DNA of 14,248 nt, from the IMG/VR virus record IMGVR_UViG_2585427739_000001; one strand, given 5' to 3'. Origin of the DNA: a virus. Its lineage: Duplodnaviria > Heunggongvirae > Uroviricota > Caudoviricetes. The stretch's first letter is position 1, and each line of letters starts with the position of its first letter. Position numbers and translations under genes: made by a program. Shown piece after piece: positions 1 through 13,381 of this stretch. Under the pieces are notes generated by a model. That model saw only the letters and a program-made list of their open reading frames with translations, did no database searches and was not told where the DNA came from.

Positions 1-1130
<1,130 letters not shown>

Positions 1131-2936: not shown

Positions 2937-3363
2937 AAGCTGTGTGACGAAGTAACCACTCTTAACAGCATAACCAATTTTTTACGTACGTAAACCACTA
3001 AATGATATTTGCGAGAATGCTACCGAGTATTGAAAACACCACTACAAATACATAAGCAAATCTCAACAAATAACCAACAAATAATTTCCAGTGTTATTTT
3101 TAGCCAATTTAAATTGAACCTTCAAATTATAGAGCACTTATAAATAACAGCCGTTAATATAAATTGGCTAATAGATTTATTTTTATTCAGCCAAGAGCTA
3201 TGAATAGGATTCGATAGAAAAAAGTTCAGATAAAAATAGAGATCTACTTCACAAATCAAACGAGAAACCAAAACTTACATCTTGAAATAATCACATTGAT
3301 TAGATGAATATTTATCGCGCAGTGACATCATTTTTTAATAATAGTTCAAAAAAAGGGCTCACG

Positions 3364-4461
3364 ATGAAAAAATTAACAGTGGCAATTTCTGCTGTAGCTG
3401 CATCAGTACTGATGGCGATGTCTGCTCAGGCAGCTGAAATTTATAATAAAGACAGTAACAAGCTGGATCTGTACGGGAAAGTTAATGCTAAGCACTACTT
3501 CTCCTCTAATGATGCAGATGATGGTGATACTACTTATGCCCGTCTTGGCTTCAAAGGTGAAACCCAAATCAACGATCAACTGACTGGTTTCGGTCAGTGG
3601 GAATATGAATTCAAAGGCAACCGCGCTGAATCTCAAGGTTCCTCCAAAGATAAAACCCGTCTTGCCTTCGCTGGCCTGAAATTCGGTGACTACGGCTCCA
3701 TCGATTACGGCCGTAACTACGGTGTAGCATACGACATCGGTGCGTGGACTGACGTTCTGCCAGAATTCGGTGGTGACACTTGGACTCAAACCGACGTGTT
3801 CATGACTCAACGTGCAACTGGTGTTGCAACCTATCGTAACAACGACTTCTTTGGTCTGGTTGATGGTCTGAACTTTGCTGCTCAGTACCAAGGCAAAAAC
3901 GATCGTAGCGATTTCGATAACTACACTGAAGGTAACGGTGATGGCTTCGGTTTCTCTGCTACCTATGAATACGAAGGATTCGGTATCGGTGCAACTTATG
4001 CGAAATCTGATCGTACCGACACTCAAGTTAATGCAGGGAAAGTTCTTCCTGAAGTATTTGCTTCCGGTAAAAATGCAGAAGTTTGGGCCGCAGGTCTGAA
4101 ATATGACGCTAACAACATTTACCTGGCCACTACCTATTCTGAAACCCAGAATATGACTGTATTTGCTGATCACTTCGTTGCTAATAAAGCCCAAAACTTC
4201 GAAGCTGTTGCACAATATCAGTTCGATTTCGGTCTGCGTCCGTCCGTTGCTTACCTGCAATCTAAAGGTAAGGATCTTGGAGTATGGGGCGATCAGGACT
4301 TAGTCAAATATGTTGATGTAGGTGCAACCTATTACTTCAACAAAAATATGTCTACTTTCGTTGATTACAAAATCAACCTGCTTGACAAAAATGACTTCAC
4401 TAAAGCACTCGGTGTAAGCACTGATGACATCGTTGCTGTAGGTCTGGTTTACCAGTTCTAA
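3364..4461 (+). CDS. nmpC: Outer-membrane general porin, NmpC/Lc/OmpD family (prophage moron, apparently intact)
   Basis: 365 aa with signal peptide [23 protein letters not shown]|AEIYNKD, porin-typical beta-strand repeats and C-terminal ...VGLVYQF. Encoded between Q and S on the opposite strand, as in DLP12 and phage PA-2. The ORF-track start at 3304 is an upstream extension. Confidence 0.88.
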
Positions 4462-4471
4462 TCTGATTACG

Positions 4472-4511
4472 AAAAAGATATGTTGCGGGAGGCATTGCCT
4501 CCCCAACATAT
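4472..4511 (-). terminator. Long hairpin plus U-run on the minus strand immediately past the nmpC stop; candidate late-operon early terminator (tR'-like)
   Basis: Imperfect palindrome atatgttgcgggaggcattgcctccccaacatat (4477-4511) preceded on the plus strand by aaaaa, which reads as stem plus CUUUUU on the minus strand. Confidence 0.4.
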
Positions 4512-4592
4512 AAGTGGCTCCCTCAAGCCACTTCCTTTAGAAGCACAACCTTGCTTCTAACTATATAAACCTTCTGTTATATATTACCCTTT

Positions 4593-4623
4593 ATTTTTGG
4601 GGGCGTCTCAACGCCCCATTTTT
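4593..4623 (+). terminator. Hairpin with flanking T-runs between convergent nmpC and Q; candidate nmpC terminator
   Basis: tttttgggggcgt-ctca-acgcccc-attttt: GC-rich stem followed by a T-run on the plus strand. Confidence 0.45.
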
Positions 4624-4650
4624 AATAATTTTTAGTAAACAATTGGCATA

Positions 4651-5034
4651 TTAATTAGAGTTATTAACAACGATATCCATCTCTAACCGGATATCTAATG
4701 CCATTAACATCCCTTCAATTATGCCCTCAGCCTTCTGTAACCTTTTCCCGATATAACCATCAGAGCAGCAATGCTTACCTGCCAGTGACATGAATGTCAT
4801 ACCGACTACATAATAATCTACTAATAAATCGTGCAAATCGCTGTTGTTCTTTTTCAGACGGGCCATGCACCCGCAAATAATCATCGCGTCATCGTCACAA
4901 CATTGCGGGCGAGATTTTACTTTTGAAGTAATTAATCCCTTAAAACCGGCGGCAATGGACGACCAGGTCACATCTTCATGATTATTAGCCGCCCACGCTC
5001 CCCAACGCTCAAGAACCATCTGAATATCACGCAT
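4651..5034 (-). CDS. Q: Late-gene antiterminator Q (phage 21/DLP12 QuuD type)
   Basis: 127 aa from [26 protein letters not shown]... with Cys-rich zinc-binding region ([16 protein letters not shown]); matches Q21/QuuD as recalled. The ORF track adds 5 upstream codons. Confidence 0.88.
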
Positions 5035-6173: not shown

Positions 6174-6346
6174 TTCCTCGCACGATGTCTTAGCCACCGG
6201 ATATCCCACAGGTGAGCCGTGTAGTTGAAGGTTTTTACGTCAGATTCTTTTGGGATTGGCTTGCGTTTATTTCTGGAGCGTTTCGTTGGAAGGTATTTGC
6301 AGTTTTCGCAGATTATGTCGGTGATGCTTCGTCGCTGTCGTCTCAT
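6170..6346 (-). CDS. ninE: Small basic Cys-containing nin-region protein (NinE-like, 58 aa)
   Basis: [58 protein letters not shown]; start ATG overlaps the methyltransferase stop (ATGA). The NinE assignment is from memory and tentative. Confidence 0.45.
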
Positions 6347-6870
6347 GCAGCCCTCCTGACGCCCTGCCCGATCGCCATCAATGCCGCTTTGGATACGGTA
6401 GTAAACATCCGTCGAGGACTGATGAACGGTCGCCAAATCAGCAGCATGGAGCCTTTGCTGTTTCCCTTCTTCTCCAGCCCTGTCGATGGTTCGATAAAAT
6501 TAATCCGTCCATCAGTGATAATACGAACTTCGTCAACACTCTCCAGAGCCTTGCTGAACCATCCGACAGACATATCCTCTGGCACAAGCATCACTACCGT
6601 CTGTCGCTGTTGTATACACTGCTCAGCGGCTTTTTCCACCCACGGCCTGATATTGCTGTACGGTGGGTTATTCCAGATTGCACCGTGGCTTACCCACTCA
6701 GAATTGAGCGCGTCGTCGTCCTCAGTTAGCCAGTGAGCGCACAGAGCATTTTTGTCGCTCGCTGCCGAATCCAGCCAGAATCCAAACTCAATATCCAGTG
6801 CATCAAAAAGCCAAAGCGGCGTTTGCCAGCAGTCCTTGTCGTGTGCTGGCGTATTTGATTTGATAGTCAT
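6343..6870 (-). CDS. Phage orphan DNA N6-adenine methyltransferase (phage Dam family)
   Basis: 175 aa [41 protein letters not shown]...IWNNPPYSN...: a DCWQTP N-terminal motif and an NPPY catalytic motif typical of phage N6-adenine methyltransferases. ATG overlaps the ninB stop. Confidence 0.75.
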
Positions 6871-7307
6871 GCAGCCCGATCTCCCCATCGCGCTTTCCAT
6901 TCGAGAGCTAGTCGCGCTTCGTCTGACCACTTAACGCCACGCTCTGTACCGAATGCCTGTATAAGCTCTAATAGCTCCGCAAATTCGCTTACACGCATCC
7001 TGCTGGTTGACTGACCTATTACCACAAAGCCATTCCCGGCAAGGTTAGGAACAACATCCTGCTGCTTTAATGCTGCGGTAAACACACACTTCCAGCTTTC
7101 TGCATCCAGCCAGCGACCATGCCATTCAACCTGACGAGAGACGTCACCTAAGCAGGCCCATAGCTTCCTGTTTTGGTCTAAGCTGCGGTTGCGTTCCTGA
7201 ATGGTTACTACGATTGGTTTGGTTGGGTCTGGAAGGATTTGCTGTACTGCGTGAATAGCGTTTTGCTGATGTGCTGGAGATCGAATTTCAAAGGTTAGTT
7301 TTTTCAT
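6867..7307 (-). CDS. ninB: NinB (Orf-family recombination mediator)
   Basis: 146 aa MKKLTFEIRSPAHQQNAIHAVQQILPDPTKPIVVTIQERNRSLDQNRKLWA... essentially identical to lambda NinB as recalled. Confidence 0.92.
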   Translation of the reverse strand: MKKLTFEIRSPAHQQNAIHAVQQILPDPTKPIVVTIQERNRSLDQNRKLWACLGDVSRQVEWHGRWLDAESWKCVFTAALKQQDVVPNLAGNGFVVIGQSTSRMRVSEFAELLELIQAFGTERGVKWSDEARLALEWKARWGDRAA

Positions 7308-7380: not shown

Positions 7381-7671
7381 TCATCTTTTAACTCCATATA
7401 CCGCCAATACCCGTTTCATCGCGGCACTCTGGCGACACTCCTTAAAAACCAGGTTCGTGCTCATCTTTCCTTCCCGTTCTTCCCTGGTAGCAAACCGGTA
7501 ATACACCGTTCGCCAGACCTTACCTTCGATAACCAGAAGACCTGCCCGTGCCATTTTAGCCGCGGCCTGATTTATGCTGGTTACTGTTGCGCCTGTTAGC
7601 GCGGCAACGTCCGGCGCACAGAAGCTATTATGCGTCCCCAGGTAATGAATAATTGCCTCTTTGCCCGTCAT
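7381..7671 (-). CDS. ren: Ren protein
   Basis: 96 aa MTGKEAIIHYLGTHNSFCAPDVAALTGATVTSINQAAAKMARAG... matches lambda Ren as recalled. Confidence 0.92.
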   Translation of the reverse strand: MTGKEAIIHYLGTHNSFCAPDVAALTGATVTSINQAAAKMARAGLLVIEGKVWRTVYYRFATREEREGKMSTNLVFKECRQSAAMKRVLAVYGVKR

Positions 7672-10724: not shown

Positions 10725-10763
10725 TGAAACCACTTTTATCTACAATTTACAGGGCGGTAAACA

Positions 10764-11321
10764 TTGGCAAAAATAGATGATTATCAGCCAAGCCAAGTAG
10801 AAGTTGATAAAGTACTTTATTGTAAAAAAATAGTTAACTTTTCTGGCGTTAAATGGAAACAGAAACCAAGTCGCTCTGATATGTGGCTACAAGCTCATAT
10901 CATCCCCTTGGATGAGGATTGTATACCTATACAAGGGCTAAAGTTTGAACTGAAATGGAAACCAGATCAGGATTCAGAACCTGATGACCCGATTTCTTAC
11001 CCTAAAATAAATATTATTGCTTTCTATCATAACAAGAGGGTTTTCGCGGTAGATACCTATCACTTTGACAAACACACGAATAGTTACAAGGTCGATCATC
11101 CGAAGTACCAAGATATCATTTACGGTGCTCATTACCATGTATACTATGAAGAAGCTGGATACTATAGTGATAGAATAGCGTTTCCAATCGAAGATGACAT
11201 AAACCCAGATGACCTGGTAGGGTATTGGAATTACTTCTGTAAACATCTGAACATAACTTACTCTGGGAGAATACCTTTACCGCTTGAAGATGAGTCGGGG
11301 CAAATGGGGTTTGGAATATGA
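10764..11321 (+). CDS. Uncharacterised protein A (185 aa) in the rexA position; first gene of a two-gene cassette
   Basis: ORF immediately downstream of cI (39-bp gap, no terminator seen). Only available start is TTG at 10764 preceded by AGGGCGG; the next in-frame ATG is at codon 40. Acidic, Tyr/His-rich, no obvious transmembrane segment, visibly AT-rich. Confidence 0.6.
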   Translation: MAKIDDYQPSQVEVDKVLYCKKIVNFSGVKWKQKPSRSDMWLQAHIIPLDEDCIPIQGLKFELKWKPDQDSEPDDPISYPKINIIAFYHNKRVFAVDTYHFDKHTNSYKVDHPKYQDIIYGAHYHVYYEEAGYYSDRIAFPIEDDINPDDLVGYWNYFCKHLNITYSGRIPLPLEDESGQMGFGI

Positions 11322-12070
11322 TGTGCTCAACAGTGATCTCACAACTAGGTTTCGAATGCCATCCAATAGGCAAGACCTTGAGAATTATCAGTCCATTCAC
11401 TTACTGTGATGATGGAGAGCATGTCGGTGCCTTTATCCGTGAAGTCAATGGTAGGTATTTAGTTAGTGACAGATGCGATGCCTTAATGAATATGGAGGCA
11501 AGAGGGATCTCGCTTACCAAAAAACGACTTGATGAGATACGACAATTACTGCTTAAAGAAGGCGCAGAACTCAATGCTCGAGGAGAAATCATTGCTTGGG
11601 CAACAGAAAAGGATGTCGGTGCGATTACATCGAACATAATTAGAGCTGGTATACTCGCATCAACTTTGTCGTTAGACTGGTATCAGCCAGTTCAAGCTGA
11701 AAAGTTTGAAAGTATGGTTATTGATTATCTATATCACACAGAGCTTAGAGAGGCACTTTCTCTTCGTGAAAACGTATATGGCTTGAGTGGACATCAAATT
11801 ACCGTCCCTGTAACAATAAAAACCGACATACCTAAATACGTTTTTACATCAAGCGTGAAACACGGAGGAAGCTGGAATAGTGCTTACTCATTGCTTGGGA
11901 AACTAATTGATCTTAAAGCTTCAAGTGAGGAGTATAACAACAGATTTGTTGTTATAGACAGCGAAGCAATTGGTGATCAAATGCAACAACTCTCCTTACT
12001 CTTCCATGAATCAAGCCAAGTTCTACCATTCTCCAAAAGAGAGACTTGGATTAAGAGACTTGCAGCATAA
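11318..12070 (+). CDS. Uncharacterised protein B (250 aa) in the rexB position; second gene of the cassette
   Basis: ATG at 11318 overlaps the stop of protein A (ATGA), implying translational coupling. No recognisable family and no long hydrophobic helices; followed by an intrinsic terminator. Confidence 0.65.
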   Translation: MMCSTVISQLGFECHPIGKTLRIISPFTYCDDGEHVGAFIREVNGRYLVSDRCDALMNMEARGISLTKKRLDEIRQLLLKEGAELNARGEIIAWATEKDVGAITSNIIRAGILASTLSLDWYQPVQAEKFESMVIDYLYHTELREALSLRENVYGLSGHQITVPVTIKTDIPKYVFTSSVKHGGSWNSAYSLLGKLIDLKASSEEYNNRFVVIDSEAIGDQMQQLSLLFHESSQVLPFSKRETWIKRLAA

Positions 12071-12075
12071 TACAA

Positions 12076-12100
12076 CCCGGCCTCAGCGCCGGGTTTTCTT
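12076..12100 (+). terminator. Intrinsic terminator ending the cI/cassette transcript
   Basis: cccggc-ctcagc-gccggg followed by ttttcttt. Confidence 0.75.
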
Positions 12101-12258
12101 TGCCTCACGATCGCCCCACCTAAAAACACATAACCAATTGTATTTATTGGAAAATAAATAGATACAACTCACTAAACAACGCAATTCTGATCTCTCCTTA
12201 CATCGCCGAGGCAATACACTCACTCGAAAAAATAAATCCATATAAAAAACATACAGAT

Positions 12259-12325
12259 AACCATTTGCGGTGATAAAATATCTCTAGCGGTGTTGACACA
12301 AATACCACTAGCGGTGATACTTAGC
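12259..12325 (+). promoter_or_regulatory. OL: Left operator OL1-OL2-OL3 with promoter pL
   Basis: OL3 aaccatttgcggtgata, OL2 tatctctagcggtgttg, OL1 taccactagcggtgata; -35 ttgaca and -10 gatact overlapping the operators. Confidence 0.85.
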
Positions 12326-12502: not shown

Positions 12503-12826
12503 ATGGATGCACAAACACGCCGCCGCGAACGTCGCGCAGAGAAACAGGCTCAATGGAAAGCAGCAAATCCCCTGTTGGTTGGGGTAAGCGCAAAACCAGT
12601 TAACCGCCCTATTCTCTCGCTGAATCGCAAACCGAAATCACGAGTAGAAAGCGCACTGAATCCGATAGACCTTACAGTGCTGGCTGAATACCACGAACAG
12701 ATTGAAAGCAACCTGCAACGTATTGAGCGCAAGAATCAGCGCACATGGTACAGCAAGCCTGGCGAACGCGGCATAACATGCAGTGGACGCCAGAAAATTA
12801 AGGGAAAATCGATTCCTCTTACCTAG
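12503..12826 (+). CDS. N: Antiterminator N
   Basis: 107 aa MDAQTRRRERRAEKQAQWKAANPLLVGVSAKPVNRPILSLNRKPKSRVESALNP... with arginine-rich motif; AGGAGA RBS upstream. The ORF-track start at 12413 is a leader extension. Confidence 0.93.
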   Translation: MDAQTRRRERRAEKQAQWKAANPLLVGVSAKPVNRPILSLNRKPKSRVESALNPIDLTVLAEYHEQIESNLQRIERKNQRTWYSKPGERGITCSGRQKIKGKSIPLT

Positions 12827-13381
12827 TTACTTAGATATTGGCCTTGGCTTTATCTCAATATTATATGGATCATAGCTGGCAACTAATTCAGTCCAGTAAA
12901 TATCCTCAATAGGGAATAATATATGCTTCCCGTTCCATCGGGAAAAAGTTTTGTTCAACACACCAAGCTCAATCAACTCACTAATGTATGGGAATTGTTT
13001 TGATGTAACCACATACTTCCTGCCTTCATTAAGGGCTGCGCACAAAACCATAGATTGCTCTTCTGTAAGGTTTTGAATTACCGATCGCACTTTATCGTTT
13101 TGCATCTTAATGCGTTTTCTTAGCTTAAATCGCTTATATCTGGCGCTGGCAATAGCTGATAATCGATGCACATTAATTGCTAGCGAAAATGCAAGAGCAA
13201 AGACGAAAACATGCCACACATGAGGAATACCGATTCTCTCATTAACATATTCAGGCCAGTTATCTGGGCTTAAAAGCAGAAGTCCAACCCAGATAACGAT
13301 CATATACATGGTTCTCTCCAGAGGTTCATTACTGAACACTCGTCCGAGAATAACGAGTGGATCCATTTCTATACTCATCAA
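12827..13381 (-). CDS. sieB: Superinfection exclusion protein SieB (convergent with N)
   Basis: 184 aa MMSIEMDPLVILGRVFSNEPLERTMYMIVIWVGLLLLSPDNWPEYVNERIGIPHVWHVFVFALAFSLAINV... with hydrophobic N-terminal segments; position and size match lambda sieB. Confidence 0.8.
   Translation of the reverse strand: MMSIEMDPLVILGRVFSNEPLERTMYMIVIWVGLLLLSPDNWPEYVNERIGIPHVWHVFVFALAFSLAINVHRLSAIASARYKRFKLRKRIKMQNDKVRSVIQNLTEEQSMVLCAALNEGRKYVVTSKQFPYISELIELGVLNKTFSRWNGKHILFPIEDIYWTELVASYDPYNIEIKPRPISK

Follow-up and report, generated by a model that had tools for sequence, protein, structure and literature searches.

A two-gene cassette in the rex position of a lambda-like prophage, a candidate lysogen-expressed defense or exclusion module

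The window analyzed here is the whole 14,248-nucleotide stretch of the Caudoviricetes record IMGVR_UViG_2585427739_000001 in IMG/VR, a lambda-like prophage in which two adjacent genes, which we call A and B, lie between the cI repressor gene and the OL/pL region, in the place where lambda carries rexA and rexB. The rex locus is a textbook example of prophage-encoded exclusion. We favor, with moderate confidence, the view that A and B are a lysogen-expressed two-protein cargo with some defense or exclusion function. We hold it because of the slot that the two genes occupy, their association with many unrelated repressors, the alternative cargos found in the same place, the calls of two published predictors and the nuclease-type fold of one of the two proteins. 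The rex slot proved to be a cargo hotspot in which this conserved, never-characterized pair is more common than rexAB among complete E. coli genomes, and the argument from context is now stronger than it was from the window alone.

Position of the cassette between cI and pL

A sequence-only reading of this DNA had described two open reading frames (ORFs) of 185 and 250 amino acids that overlap by ATGA and begin 39 bp after cI with no intervening terminator. The ORF list and a terminator scan bore this out: the stop codon of A and the start codon of B share the ATGA, and no terminator-like site was found on the plus strand of the 39 bp spacer. When the window was aligned with lambda (NC_001416), homology ended just past the cI stop codon and came back at about position 12073, the first base of the tIMM hairpin, from where it continued through OL/pL. 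Because homology stops and restarts at these two points, the cassette exactly substitutes for the lambda cI-rexA spacer, rexA and rexB, and the replacement that had been proposed earlier is thus an exact one. The terminator that had been seen after B is lambda tIMM, a hairpin with an 8 bp stem and a T run at 12074-12095, directly 3' of B, while pL is recognizable as a promoter-like TTGACA-17-GATACT at 12293-12321.

Since the 39 bp spacer lacks a terminator and the lambda terminator has been kept after B, A and B are probably co-transcribed with cI in a unit that ends at tIMM. One weak promoter-like match was found at 10746-10774 and was not above shuffle expectation. A promoter internal to A-B was considered and rejected, as promoter-like matches are no more common than in shuffled sequence. 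The G+C content is 0.378 for A and 0.405 for B, compared with 0.455 for cI, 0.506 for N and 0.457 for the whole window (sieB has 0.391), so that the cassette is AT-richer than its flanks, as had been supposed, though modestly. No RNA element, such as a type III antitoxin-like RNA or a small RNA, was matched by Rfam in the window, and the cassette contains no notable repeats. Minus-strand ORFs of 78-94 amino acids within the cassette were treated as incidental, and no search was made for their families or conservation.

Pairing, distribution and selection

An A-family ORF lies directly upstream of B and ends 4 bp into it in all 63 of the IMG/VR loci that carry B. The unique cassettes from IMG/VR loci number 38, and 37 of these have the ATGA junction. 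Database searches placed A homologues in approximately 26 protein clusters and B homologues in approximately 47, mostly from Enterobacterales and Aeromonas; the A family is small, as an exhaustive search with its profile through 1.84 billion representative proteins gave only 20 members at E<=0.001. Pairing extends to low sequence identity: metagenomic A relatives at 22-37% identity are still paired with B, as are the homologues in Aeromonas caviae prophages (A 37% and B 54% identical) and in Klebsiella Rac-like prophages (A 44% and B 65%). The Pseudomonas D3-like phage VB_PaD_phPA-G (PP083311.1, locus L020) contains an A-family gene at 3420-4004 that is unannotated in GenBank, probably starts at an internal MAKQK... 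and runs into the beginning of the B homologue (4001-4756), the gene order being CI-like repressor, an extra 216 amino acid gene, A and B. Besides Escherichia, the pair occurs in Aeromonas, Klebsiella, Yersinia-type and Pseudomonas phages. A and B are an obligatory pair.

Of 5426 complete E. coli genomes, 241 (about 4%) have the cassette at >=99% identity, versus 99 with rexAB. Carriers include CFT073, ATCC 25922, UM146, APEC O18 and the type strain ATCC 11775, and seven phage records also have it, one of them an Stx1a-converting phage. For both genes the nonsynonymous divergence (dN) is far below a saturated synonymous divergence (dS), indicating purifying selection on A and on B, and A evolves approximately 1.5-2 times faster than B. 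On these sequence comparisons we regard A and B as real genes. The sole disrupted copy among the 63 viral loci is in L044 (IMGVR_UViG_2526164629_000012, 3448-4004), where a frameshift, which could be a sequencing error, splits A into two ORFs and leaves B intact. This single case is compatible with A being a dispensable, dangerous partner.

A tIMM-like hairpin (ACCCGGCC...GCCGGGTTTTT) was present 3' of B in very different hosts, in 25 of the 38 unique cassettes. It was seen as well at loci L009, L014 and L017. Its carriers include a metagenome contig of 65% G+C whose B is only 31% identical. That this terminator is far better kept than the proteins suggests that it may be a module boundary or recombination sequence, or that it may have an extra function.

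Linkage to repressors and the cargo slot

A same-strand ORF ends 29-393 bp before A in 62 of the 63 viral loci, and 29-160 bp before it in all but one cluster. Grouping of these upstream ORFs at under 70% identity gave 27 clusters, of which 24 are helix-turn-helix (HTH) plus Peptidase_S24 repressors of the CI/LexA type, the remaining three being two short HTH repressors and a DUF3024 protein. Repressor-linked pairs were seen in Escherichia, Klebsiella, Aeromonas and Pseudomonas, with a Rac-type repressor in front of the pair in Klebsiella, and within E. coli a near-identical cassette stands behind at least three different repressor alleles. The arrangement repressor - A - B - terminator, for which a survey behind cI had been proposed, recurs in many prophage immunity regions, and A is always found with B.

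In an O157 strain, the cI allele that stands before A-B in CFT073 is followed by a different gene, of 173 amino acids, and the lambda-type cI is followed elsewhere by rexAB or by a small ORF and an NYN-domain gene. Because the same cI alleles precede different cargos, the cI-to-pL interval is a cargo hotspot, and of the occupants counted A-B is the most frequent. Other cargos of the cI-to-N slot, in FSIS11705876 (L084), DX6 (L085), FRIK1989 (L086) and PEC41 (L087), are further candidate systems. Examples are a 127 amino acid hypothetical protein together with an NYN-domain (RNase-like) protein, a 173 amino acid hypothetical protein and a 126 amino acid hypothetical protein.

The position behind a repressor also raises the question of whether A-B might be lysogenic-conversion or regulatory cargo that takes no part in phage conflict and acts on the cI/Cro switch, induction, excision, host physiology or the virulence of extraintestinal pathogenic E. 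coli. Expression with cI would suit a modulator of lysogeny maintenance or induction, RexA has been reported to influence the lambda switch, and the cassette is common in the extraintestinal pathogenic strains CFT073, UM146 and APEC O18. However, a function in a single switch is contrary to linkage with at least 24 unrelated repressor alleles plus a Rac-type repressor, and the occurrence of the pair in Aeromonas, Klebsiella, Yersinia-type and Pseudomonas phages means that it is not specific to a pathotype. Neither A nor B contains a DNA-binding HTH, a secretion signal or a membrane segment, and both defense predictors discussed below flagged the pair. We find this explanation quite improbable.

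Previous computational predictions

The pair had been called undescribed, and it is so to the extent that no name and no experimental test of it were found. The proteins themselves, however, are listed as 'Predicted novel defense gene' in Tables S5 and S10 of DefensePredictor (DeWeirdt, Mahoney & Laub, Science 2026) under WP_001062368.1 and WP_000968518.1, in one transcription unit of an ECOR strain. The A protein of the window is the same as WP_001062368.1 in amino acid sequence, and B differs from WP_000968518.1 by E145D and I245V. The DefensePredictor log-odds were 4.90/5.42 for A and 5.64/6.26 for B, where the strict cut-off is 4.

A search of the PADLOC models, which had been suggested as a check, gave matches to PDC-M24A and PDC-M24B only, in the right gene order, with a full-length match for B and a weak one for A. 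B matched the PDC-M24B model PDLC04540 at E=5.8e-10, with residues 2-248 on positions 4-253 of the 256-position profile, and PDLC04539 at E=1.1e-7. The match of A to the PDC-M24A model PDLC04536 (E=4.8e-4) covers only profile positions 79-134 of 148, the C-terminal 38%; eight of the 21 A-family members match one of the three PDC-M24A models, the best at E=2.4e-4. An NCBIfam search of the pair returned nothing meaningful. PDC-M24 is the two-gene cassette CAS_00098 (FAM_00129>>FAM_00065), and the PDC systems are 145 candidates embedded in BREX, DISARM and type I restriction-modification (RM) loci (Payne et al. 2024 preprint). The anti-phage role that had been put forward from context is therefore the leading reading and has two published computational predictions in its favor; experimental evidence of defense was not found.

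Protein A

The predicted structure of A is confident and beta-rich. Residues K22, W31, R92, D97, N106, G121, H123, H125, F158 and P173 are invariant throughout the family, and H104, W155 and Q180 are nearly so. Because H104-x-N106 and H123-x-H125 lie on neighboring predicted strands, their side chains are expected to face the same way, and D97 is placed at the end of the preceding strand. In the model this polar cluster suggests a catalytic, probably metal-binding, site.

Sequence, profile and fold searches with A found no relative among solved structures, and a BFVD fold search gave one match, to an uncharacterized phage protein. Pfam DUF6978 scored 22 bits against A, below the gathering cut-off of 29.6, and gave weak matches in seven of the 21 A-family members (best E=1.1e-4), a distant relationship at most. 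SAKe6, a designed Kelch-like repeat protein, was dismissed as a relative because no stretch of the match passes alone, and we treat the match as a compositional or repeat artifact. Readings of the GxHxH...E segment as cupin, HIT, HNH or beta-beta-alpha-metal were set aside as speculation, as they come from motif and secondary structure only, without fold evidence. A PD-(D/E)xK site in A, of which a weak D...ExK spacing (PLD...FELK) had been noticed, was also rejected: D50 is kept, but E62 and K64 are not conserved, being replaced in close homologues by L and by Q, L or R, respectively.

A starts with GTG or TTG in 37 of the 38 unique cassettes, as it does in most of the further lineages inspected, and with TTG at 10764 in the window. 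We take this to be the true start because the N-terminus that follows, MAK..DY.P.Q.EVD, is conserved. So consistent a use of a non-ATG start points to selection for low synthesis of A. At the other end of the protein, a tail (...ESGQMGFGI) is kept as far as Pseudomonas and was modeled with low confidence, a combination that is typical of a docking peptide and suggests that the tail may be one. No other stretch of A varies as much, whether in sequence or in length, as the acidic loop PDQDSEPDDPISY (residues 68-80; 10966-11003 in the window). Its model confidence is lower, and it may be a loop for specificity or recognition.

Protein B

The predicted model of B has a mean predicted local distance difference test score (pLDDT) of 82.4 and consists of two domains, so that the earlier remark that no motif could be assigned does not hold for this protein. 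The N-terminal domain (approximately residues 1-120) is DUF1828 and has a secretion-chaperone/YbjN-like fold in the fold search. DUF1828 scored 33.5 bits, versus a Pfam cut-off of 22, over residues 26-110, and it was matched in nine of 10 diverse B homologues. The C-terminal domain (approximately residues 128-250), probably a DUF1829 domain, has a restriction-endonuclease fold in the order alpha-beta-beta-beta-alpha-beta, and the fold search supports membership in the PD-(D/E)xK clan. HMMER detected DUF1829 in only one of 10 B homologues (E=0.049), and HHpred gave it 98.8% for B residues 155-241 in DefensePredictor Table S5 (DeWeirdt, Mahoney & Laub, Science 2026). Hydropathy showed no membrane segment in either protein, with maximum Kyte-Doolittle 19-residue means of 0.45 for A and 1.19 for B, in agreement with the earlier observation that RexB-like transmembrane helices are lacking.

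In deep alignments, the canonical D...(D/E)xK of the clan is not conserved in B. Strand beta2 starts with S157-G158-H159, which puts H159 at the D position, and beta3 (K173-Y-V-F-T177-S) has no conserved acidic-x-Lys, K173 itself being lost in distant members. Residues conserved outside the canonical motif are D198, R209 and D/E214. The domain would accordingly be either an inactive binding module or a non-canonical nuclease.

B ends in ...RLAA in the window. The LAA ending was found in 37 of the 38 unique cassettes, the other one having LVA, and the most distant homologues have the related endings VA, IAA and LAA, whereas none of the 483 other unique ORFs (>=100 amino acids) of the same loci ends in LAA. 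In the ssrA tag, the terminal LAA is what ClpX recognizes, and both LAA and LVA serve as standard strong tags for degradation. The end of B therefore resembles an ssrA-like degron, and B may be turned over by ClpXP. Neither this pattern nor that of the A start codon had been noted before; both are regulatory signatures.

If the endonuclease-fold domain is active, the roles of the two proteins in defense could be reversed. B would then be a non-canonical PD-(D/E)xK-fold nuclease acting on nucleic acid of the phage or the host, with A as its sensor or activator; the fast-evolving loop and the tail of A would recognize a phage product, and the LAA ending would keep a dangerous B nuclease scarce. 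The top fold matches of B are the NgoMIV/Cfr10I/PspGI group, in which an acidic catalytic residue is located on a helix, and the invariant D198 of B is on the helix after beta3, accompanied by S157-G158-H159, R209 and D/E214. A is the faster-evolving protein, as is usual for sensors, and has the hypervariable acidic loop at 68-80. In addition, PD-(D/E)xK domains are the commonest effector among the validated DefensePredictor systems (DeWeirdt, Mahoney & Laub, Science 2026). However, the canonical D and (D/E)xK positions of B are not conserved, the invariant His, Asp, Asn, Lys and Arg residues of A resemble a catalytic site more than they do a surface for recognition, and the conserved weak start of A is more easily explained by a toxic product. 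Nothing can be learned in this respect from the variant in which A is broken and B whole. We consider reversed roles unlikely, though they are the main rival of the mechanism proposed below.

A proposed mechanism

Returning to A as the effector, we tentatively propose an abortive-infection scheme of a toxin and a labile neutralizer, which is possible but on balance doubtful in its full detail. A and B would be transcribed with cI from pRM, with the transcript ending at tIMM. A would be a dose-sensitive effector enzyme, held at a low level by its GTG or TTG start, with a histidine-based, probably metal-binding, site formed by D97, H104, N106 and H123-x-H125. B, a labile binder, would restrain or regulate A through its DUF1828 domain, possibly by gripping the flexible C-terminal tail of A, and its endonuclease-fold domain, which lacks the canonical residues, may bind nucleic acid or a phage cue. 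ClpXP would continuously turn B over by way of the LAA tail. When a phage shuts off host and prophage expression, or perturbs B, B would be lost and A released, and the released A would stop growth or phage replication, as in abortive infection of the toxin-antitoxin (TA) type (RnlAB/LsoAB, HipAD/DS-6). Co-transcription, complex formation, enzymatic activity, proteolytic lability, trigger and outcome are the parts of this scheme that we infer.

A bolder version can be stated, although we think it rather improbable as a whole: that A-B is a widespread, repressor-linked immune module in which A is a histidine/metal effector of new fold and B, its chaperone-like and endonuclease-fold holder, carries an ssrA-like ClpXP degron, the two forming a proteolysis-timed 'dead-man switch' that is set off when an invading phage stops gene expression in the lysogen or strikes B. 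The module would then be the functional successor of RexAB in about 4% of E. coli, CFT073 and ATCC 25922 among them.

Several points weigh against the defense reading or against the mechanism proposed for it. The pair is absent from DefensePredictor Table S6 (94 units, 118 in all, cloned) and from the validated tables, 45% of the units tested in that study were validated (DeWeirdt, Mahoney & Laub, Science 2026), and DefensePredictor uses genomic context and so is not independent of the argument from the slot. PDC-M24 is an explicitly untested candidate (Payne et al. 2024 preprint), to which A matches weakly (E=5e-4, 38% of the profile). The literature yielded no experiment on the pair and nothing beyond the two computational lists; the screen of E. 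coli prophage defenses by Brenes & Laub (2025) lay outside the coverage and may include the pair, and work related to it may be the source of the ECOR13 phage records met here. Regarding the mechanism, translation of B is coupled to that of A, so that B need not be in excess over A, and gene pairs in which the toxin comes first are the less common kind. A looks like an enzyme by its conserved residues, and no fold or family match points the same way. S157-G158-H159, D198, R209 and D/E214 of B could form a non-canonical nuclease site, in which case B would be the effector, and the LAA tail, which ends a predicted helix, could be structural.

The same signatures that led us to a toxin and a neutralizer would also fit a TA or addiction module that stabilizes the prophage or its immunity region by post-segregational killing and does not exclude phages. 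A and B share with type II TA modules the feature of being two small, adjacent, co-directional and translationally coupled genes; A has a weak start codon and B a degron-like end, the two are strictly co-inherited, and the pair has spread on mobile elements over many immunity types. Against this, an integrated prophage would gain little from plasmid-style addiction, the slot is filled elsewhere by exclusion genes (rexAB) and nuclease-type cargo, and relatives of the wider family are embedded in BREX, DISARM and RM loci. Many TA modules in such positions act in defense anyway, and the explanation overlaps to this extent with the defense reading. As an alternative to defense, pure addiction strikes us as very unlikely.

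If a defense function of A-B is true, the pair would bring to bacterial immunity a protein fold and a combination of domains that are both new. It could alter which uropathogenic and avian pathogenic E. coli are open to phage therapy, and it would provide a simple search rule, namely to look at the region directly downstream of CI-type repressors. The weak start of A, the LAA end of B, the invariant histidine cluster of A and its conserved tail turn what was a guess from context only into a proposal that can be tested with point mutants.

Other genes of the prophage

Read in the cI/N direction, the gene order of the window is IS5, lysis genes, nmpC-like porin, Q, rusA, nin genes, ren, P, O, cII, cro, cI, A, B, pL, N and sieB, and this annotation agrees with phage PhiR57_1 and with CFT073. 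Table 1 lists the positions of the features. The ren gene has been kept though rexAB is gone. Ren lets lambda escape Rex exclusion, and it may still serve against Rex-carrying lysogens or interact with the A-B cassette.

Table 1. Positions, strands and basis of assignment of features in the 14,248-nucleotide window
Feature	Position	Strand	Basis
IS5 transposase, beside Rz	105-1121	-	
Intact nmpC/OmpC-like porin, between Q and lysis genes	3304-4461	+	
Dam-like N6-adenine methyltransferase, nin region	6343-6930	-	
ren	7381-7671	-	'exclusion protein Ren' in PhiR57_1, 'protein ren' in strain DX6
cI repressor, lambda-immunity allele, 237 amino acids	10011-10724	+	ORF list; aligned to lambda cI as far as its stop codon; LexA-family/cI protein in related records
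cI-A spacer, 39 bp	10725-10763	+	Start of the segment that differs from lambda
Gene A, 185 amino acids, TTG start, putative effector enzyme	10764-11321	+	ORF list
Gene B, 250 amino acids, ATG start, putative partner, sensor or neutralizer	11318-12070	+	ORF list
Intrinsic terminator, lambda tIMM	12074-12104	+	Terminator scan; alignment with lambda downstream of rexB
OL operators and pL promoter, downstream border of the cargo slot	12260-12321	+	Operator repeats; alignment with lambda OL/pL
N	12503-12826		ORF after OL/pL
sieB-type superinfection exclusion gene, opposite N	12827-13381	-	

Comparison with known systems

The A-B pair is a catalogued prediction without a name, and it belongs neither to RexAB nor to any validated system. 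In arrangement it resembles what it replaces: like RexAB, it is a two-gene cassette, probably expressed in lysogens, in the same slot after cI, in the same orientation and with the same tIMM end before OL/pL, and the two are alternative cargos on closely related backbones. The proteins are nevertheless unrelated, as had been stated from the sequence. BLASTP gave E>=11 for A and B against RexA and E=0.34 over 24 residues for B against RexB, no Rex model was among the PADLOC matches of the pair and RexA did not appear in the fold searches. Further, B is soluble and has no hydrophobic segment, unlike RexB, a polytopic membrane protein.

Regarding nucleases of the same clan, the C-terminal domain of B differs from Can2/Card1, NgoMIV, PspGI, Cfr10I and BstEII in lacking their canonical D...(D/E)xK, and the N-terminal domain is chaperone-like and is neither a CARF nor a DNA-recognition domain. 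In RnlAB and LsoAB the toxin gene comes first and the second gene encodes a protease-labile antitoxin, which is lost upon phage shut-off of host expression, freeing the toxin. This toxin-first, labile-antitoxin logic is what we propose for A-B, although RnlAB/LsoAB have no sequence or fold relationship to it.

PDC-M24 resembles A-B over the full length of the B component, more weakly in the A component, in the A-then-B order and in the Pfam domains DUF6978 (A, weak) and DUF1828 (B). It is distant kin, however, embedded in BREX, DISARM and type I RM loci, while the A-B lineage lies behind prophage repressors. Finally, DS-6/HipAD is a validated two-gene defense consisting of a HipA-like kinase and DS-6B, which has DUF3037 and DUF1829 domains (DeWeirdt, Mahoney & Laub, Science 2026). 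Its effector is a kinase with no homology to A, its partner has a DUF3037 N-terminal domain, and its DUF1829 assignment is weak (probability 0.78). What DS-6/HipAD shares with A-B is a DUF1829-like partner of the PD-(D/E)xK clan beside an enzymatic toxin, a partner that has been proposed to be the neutralizer in a TA-like abortive infection.

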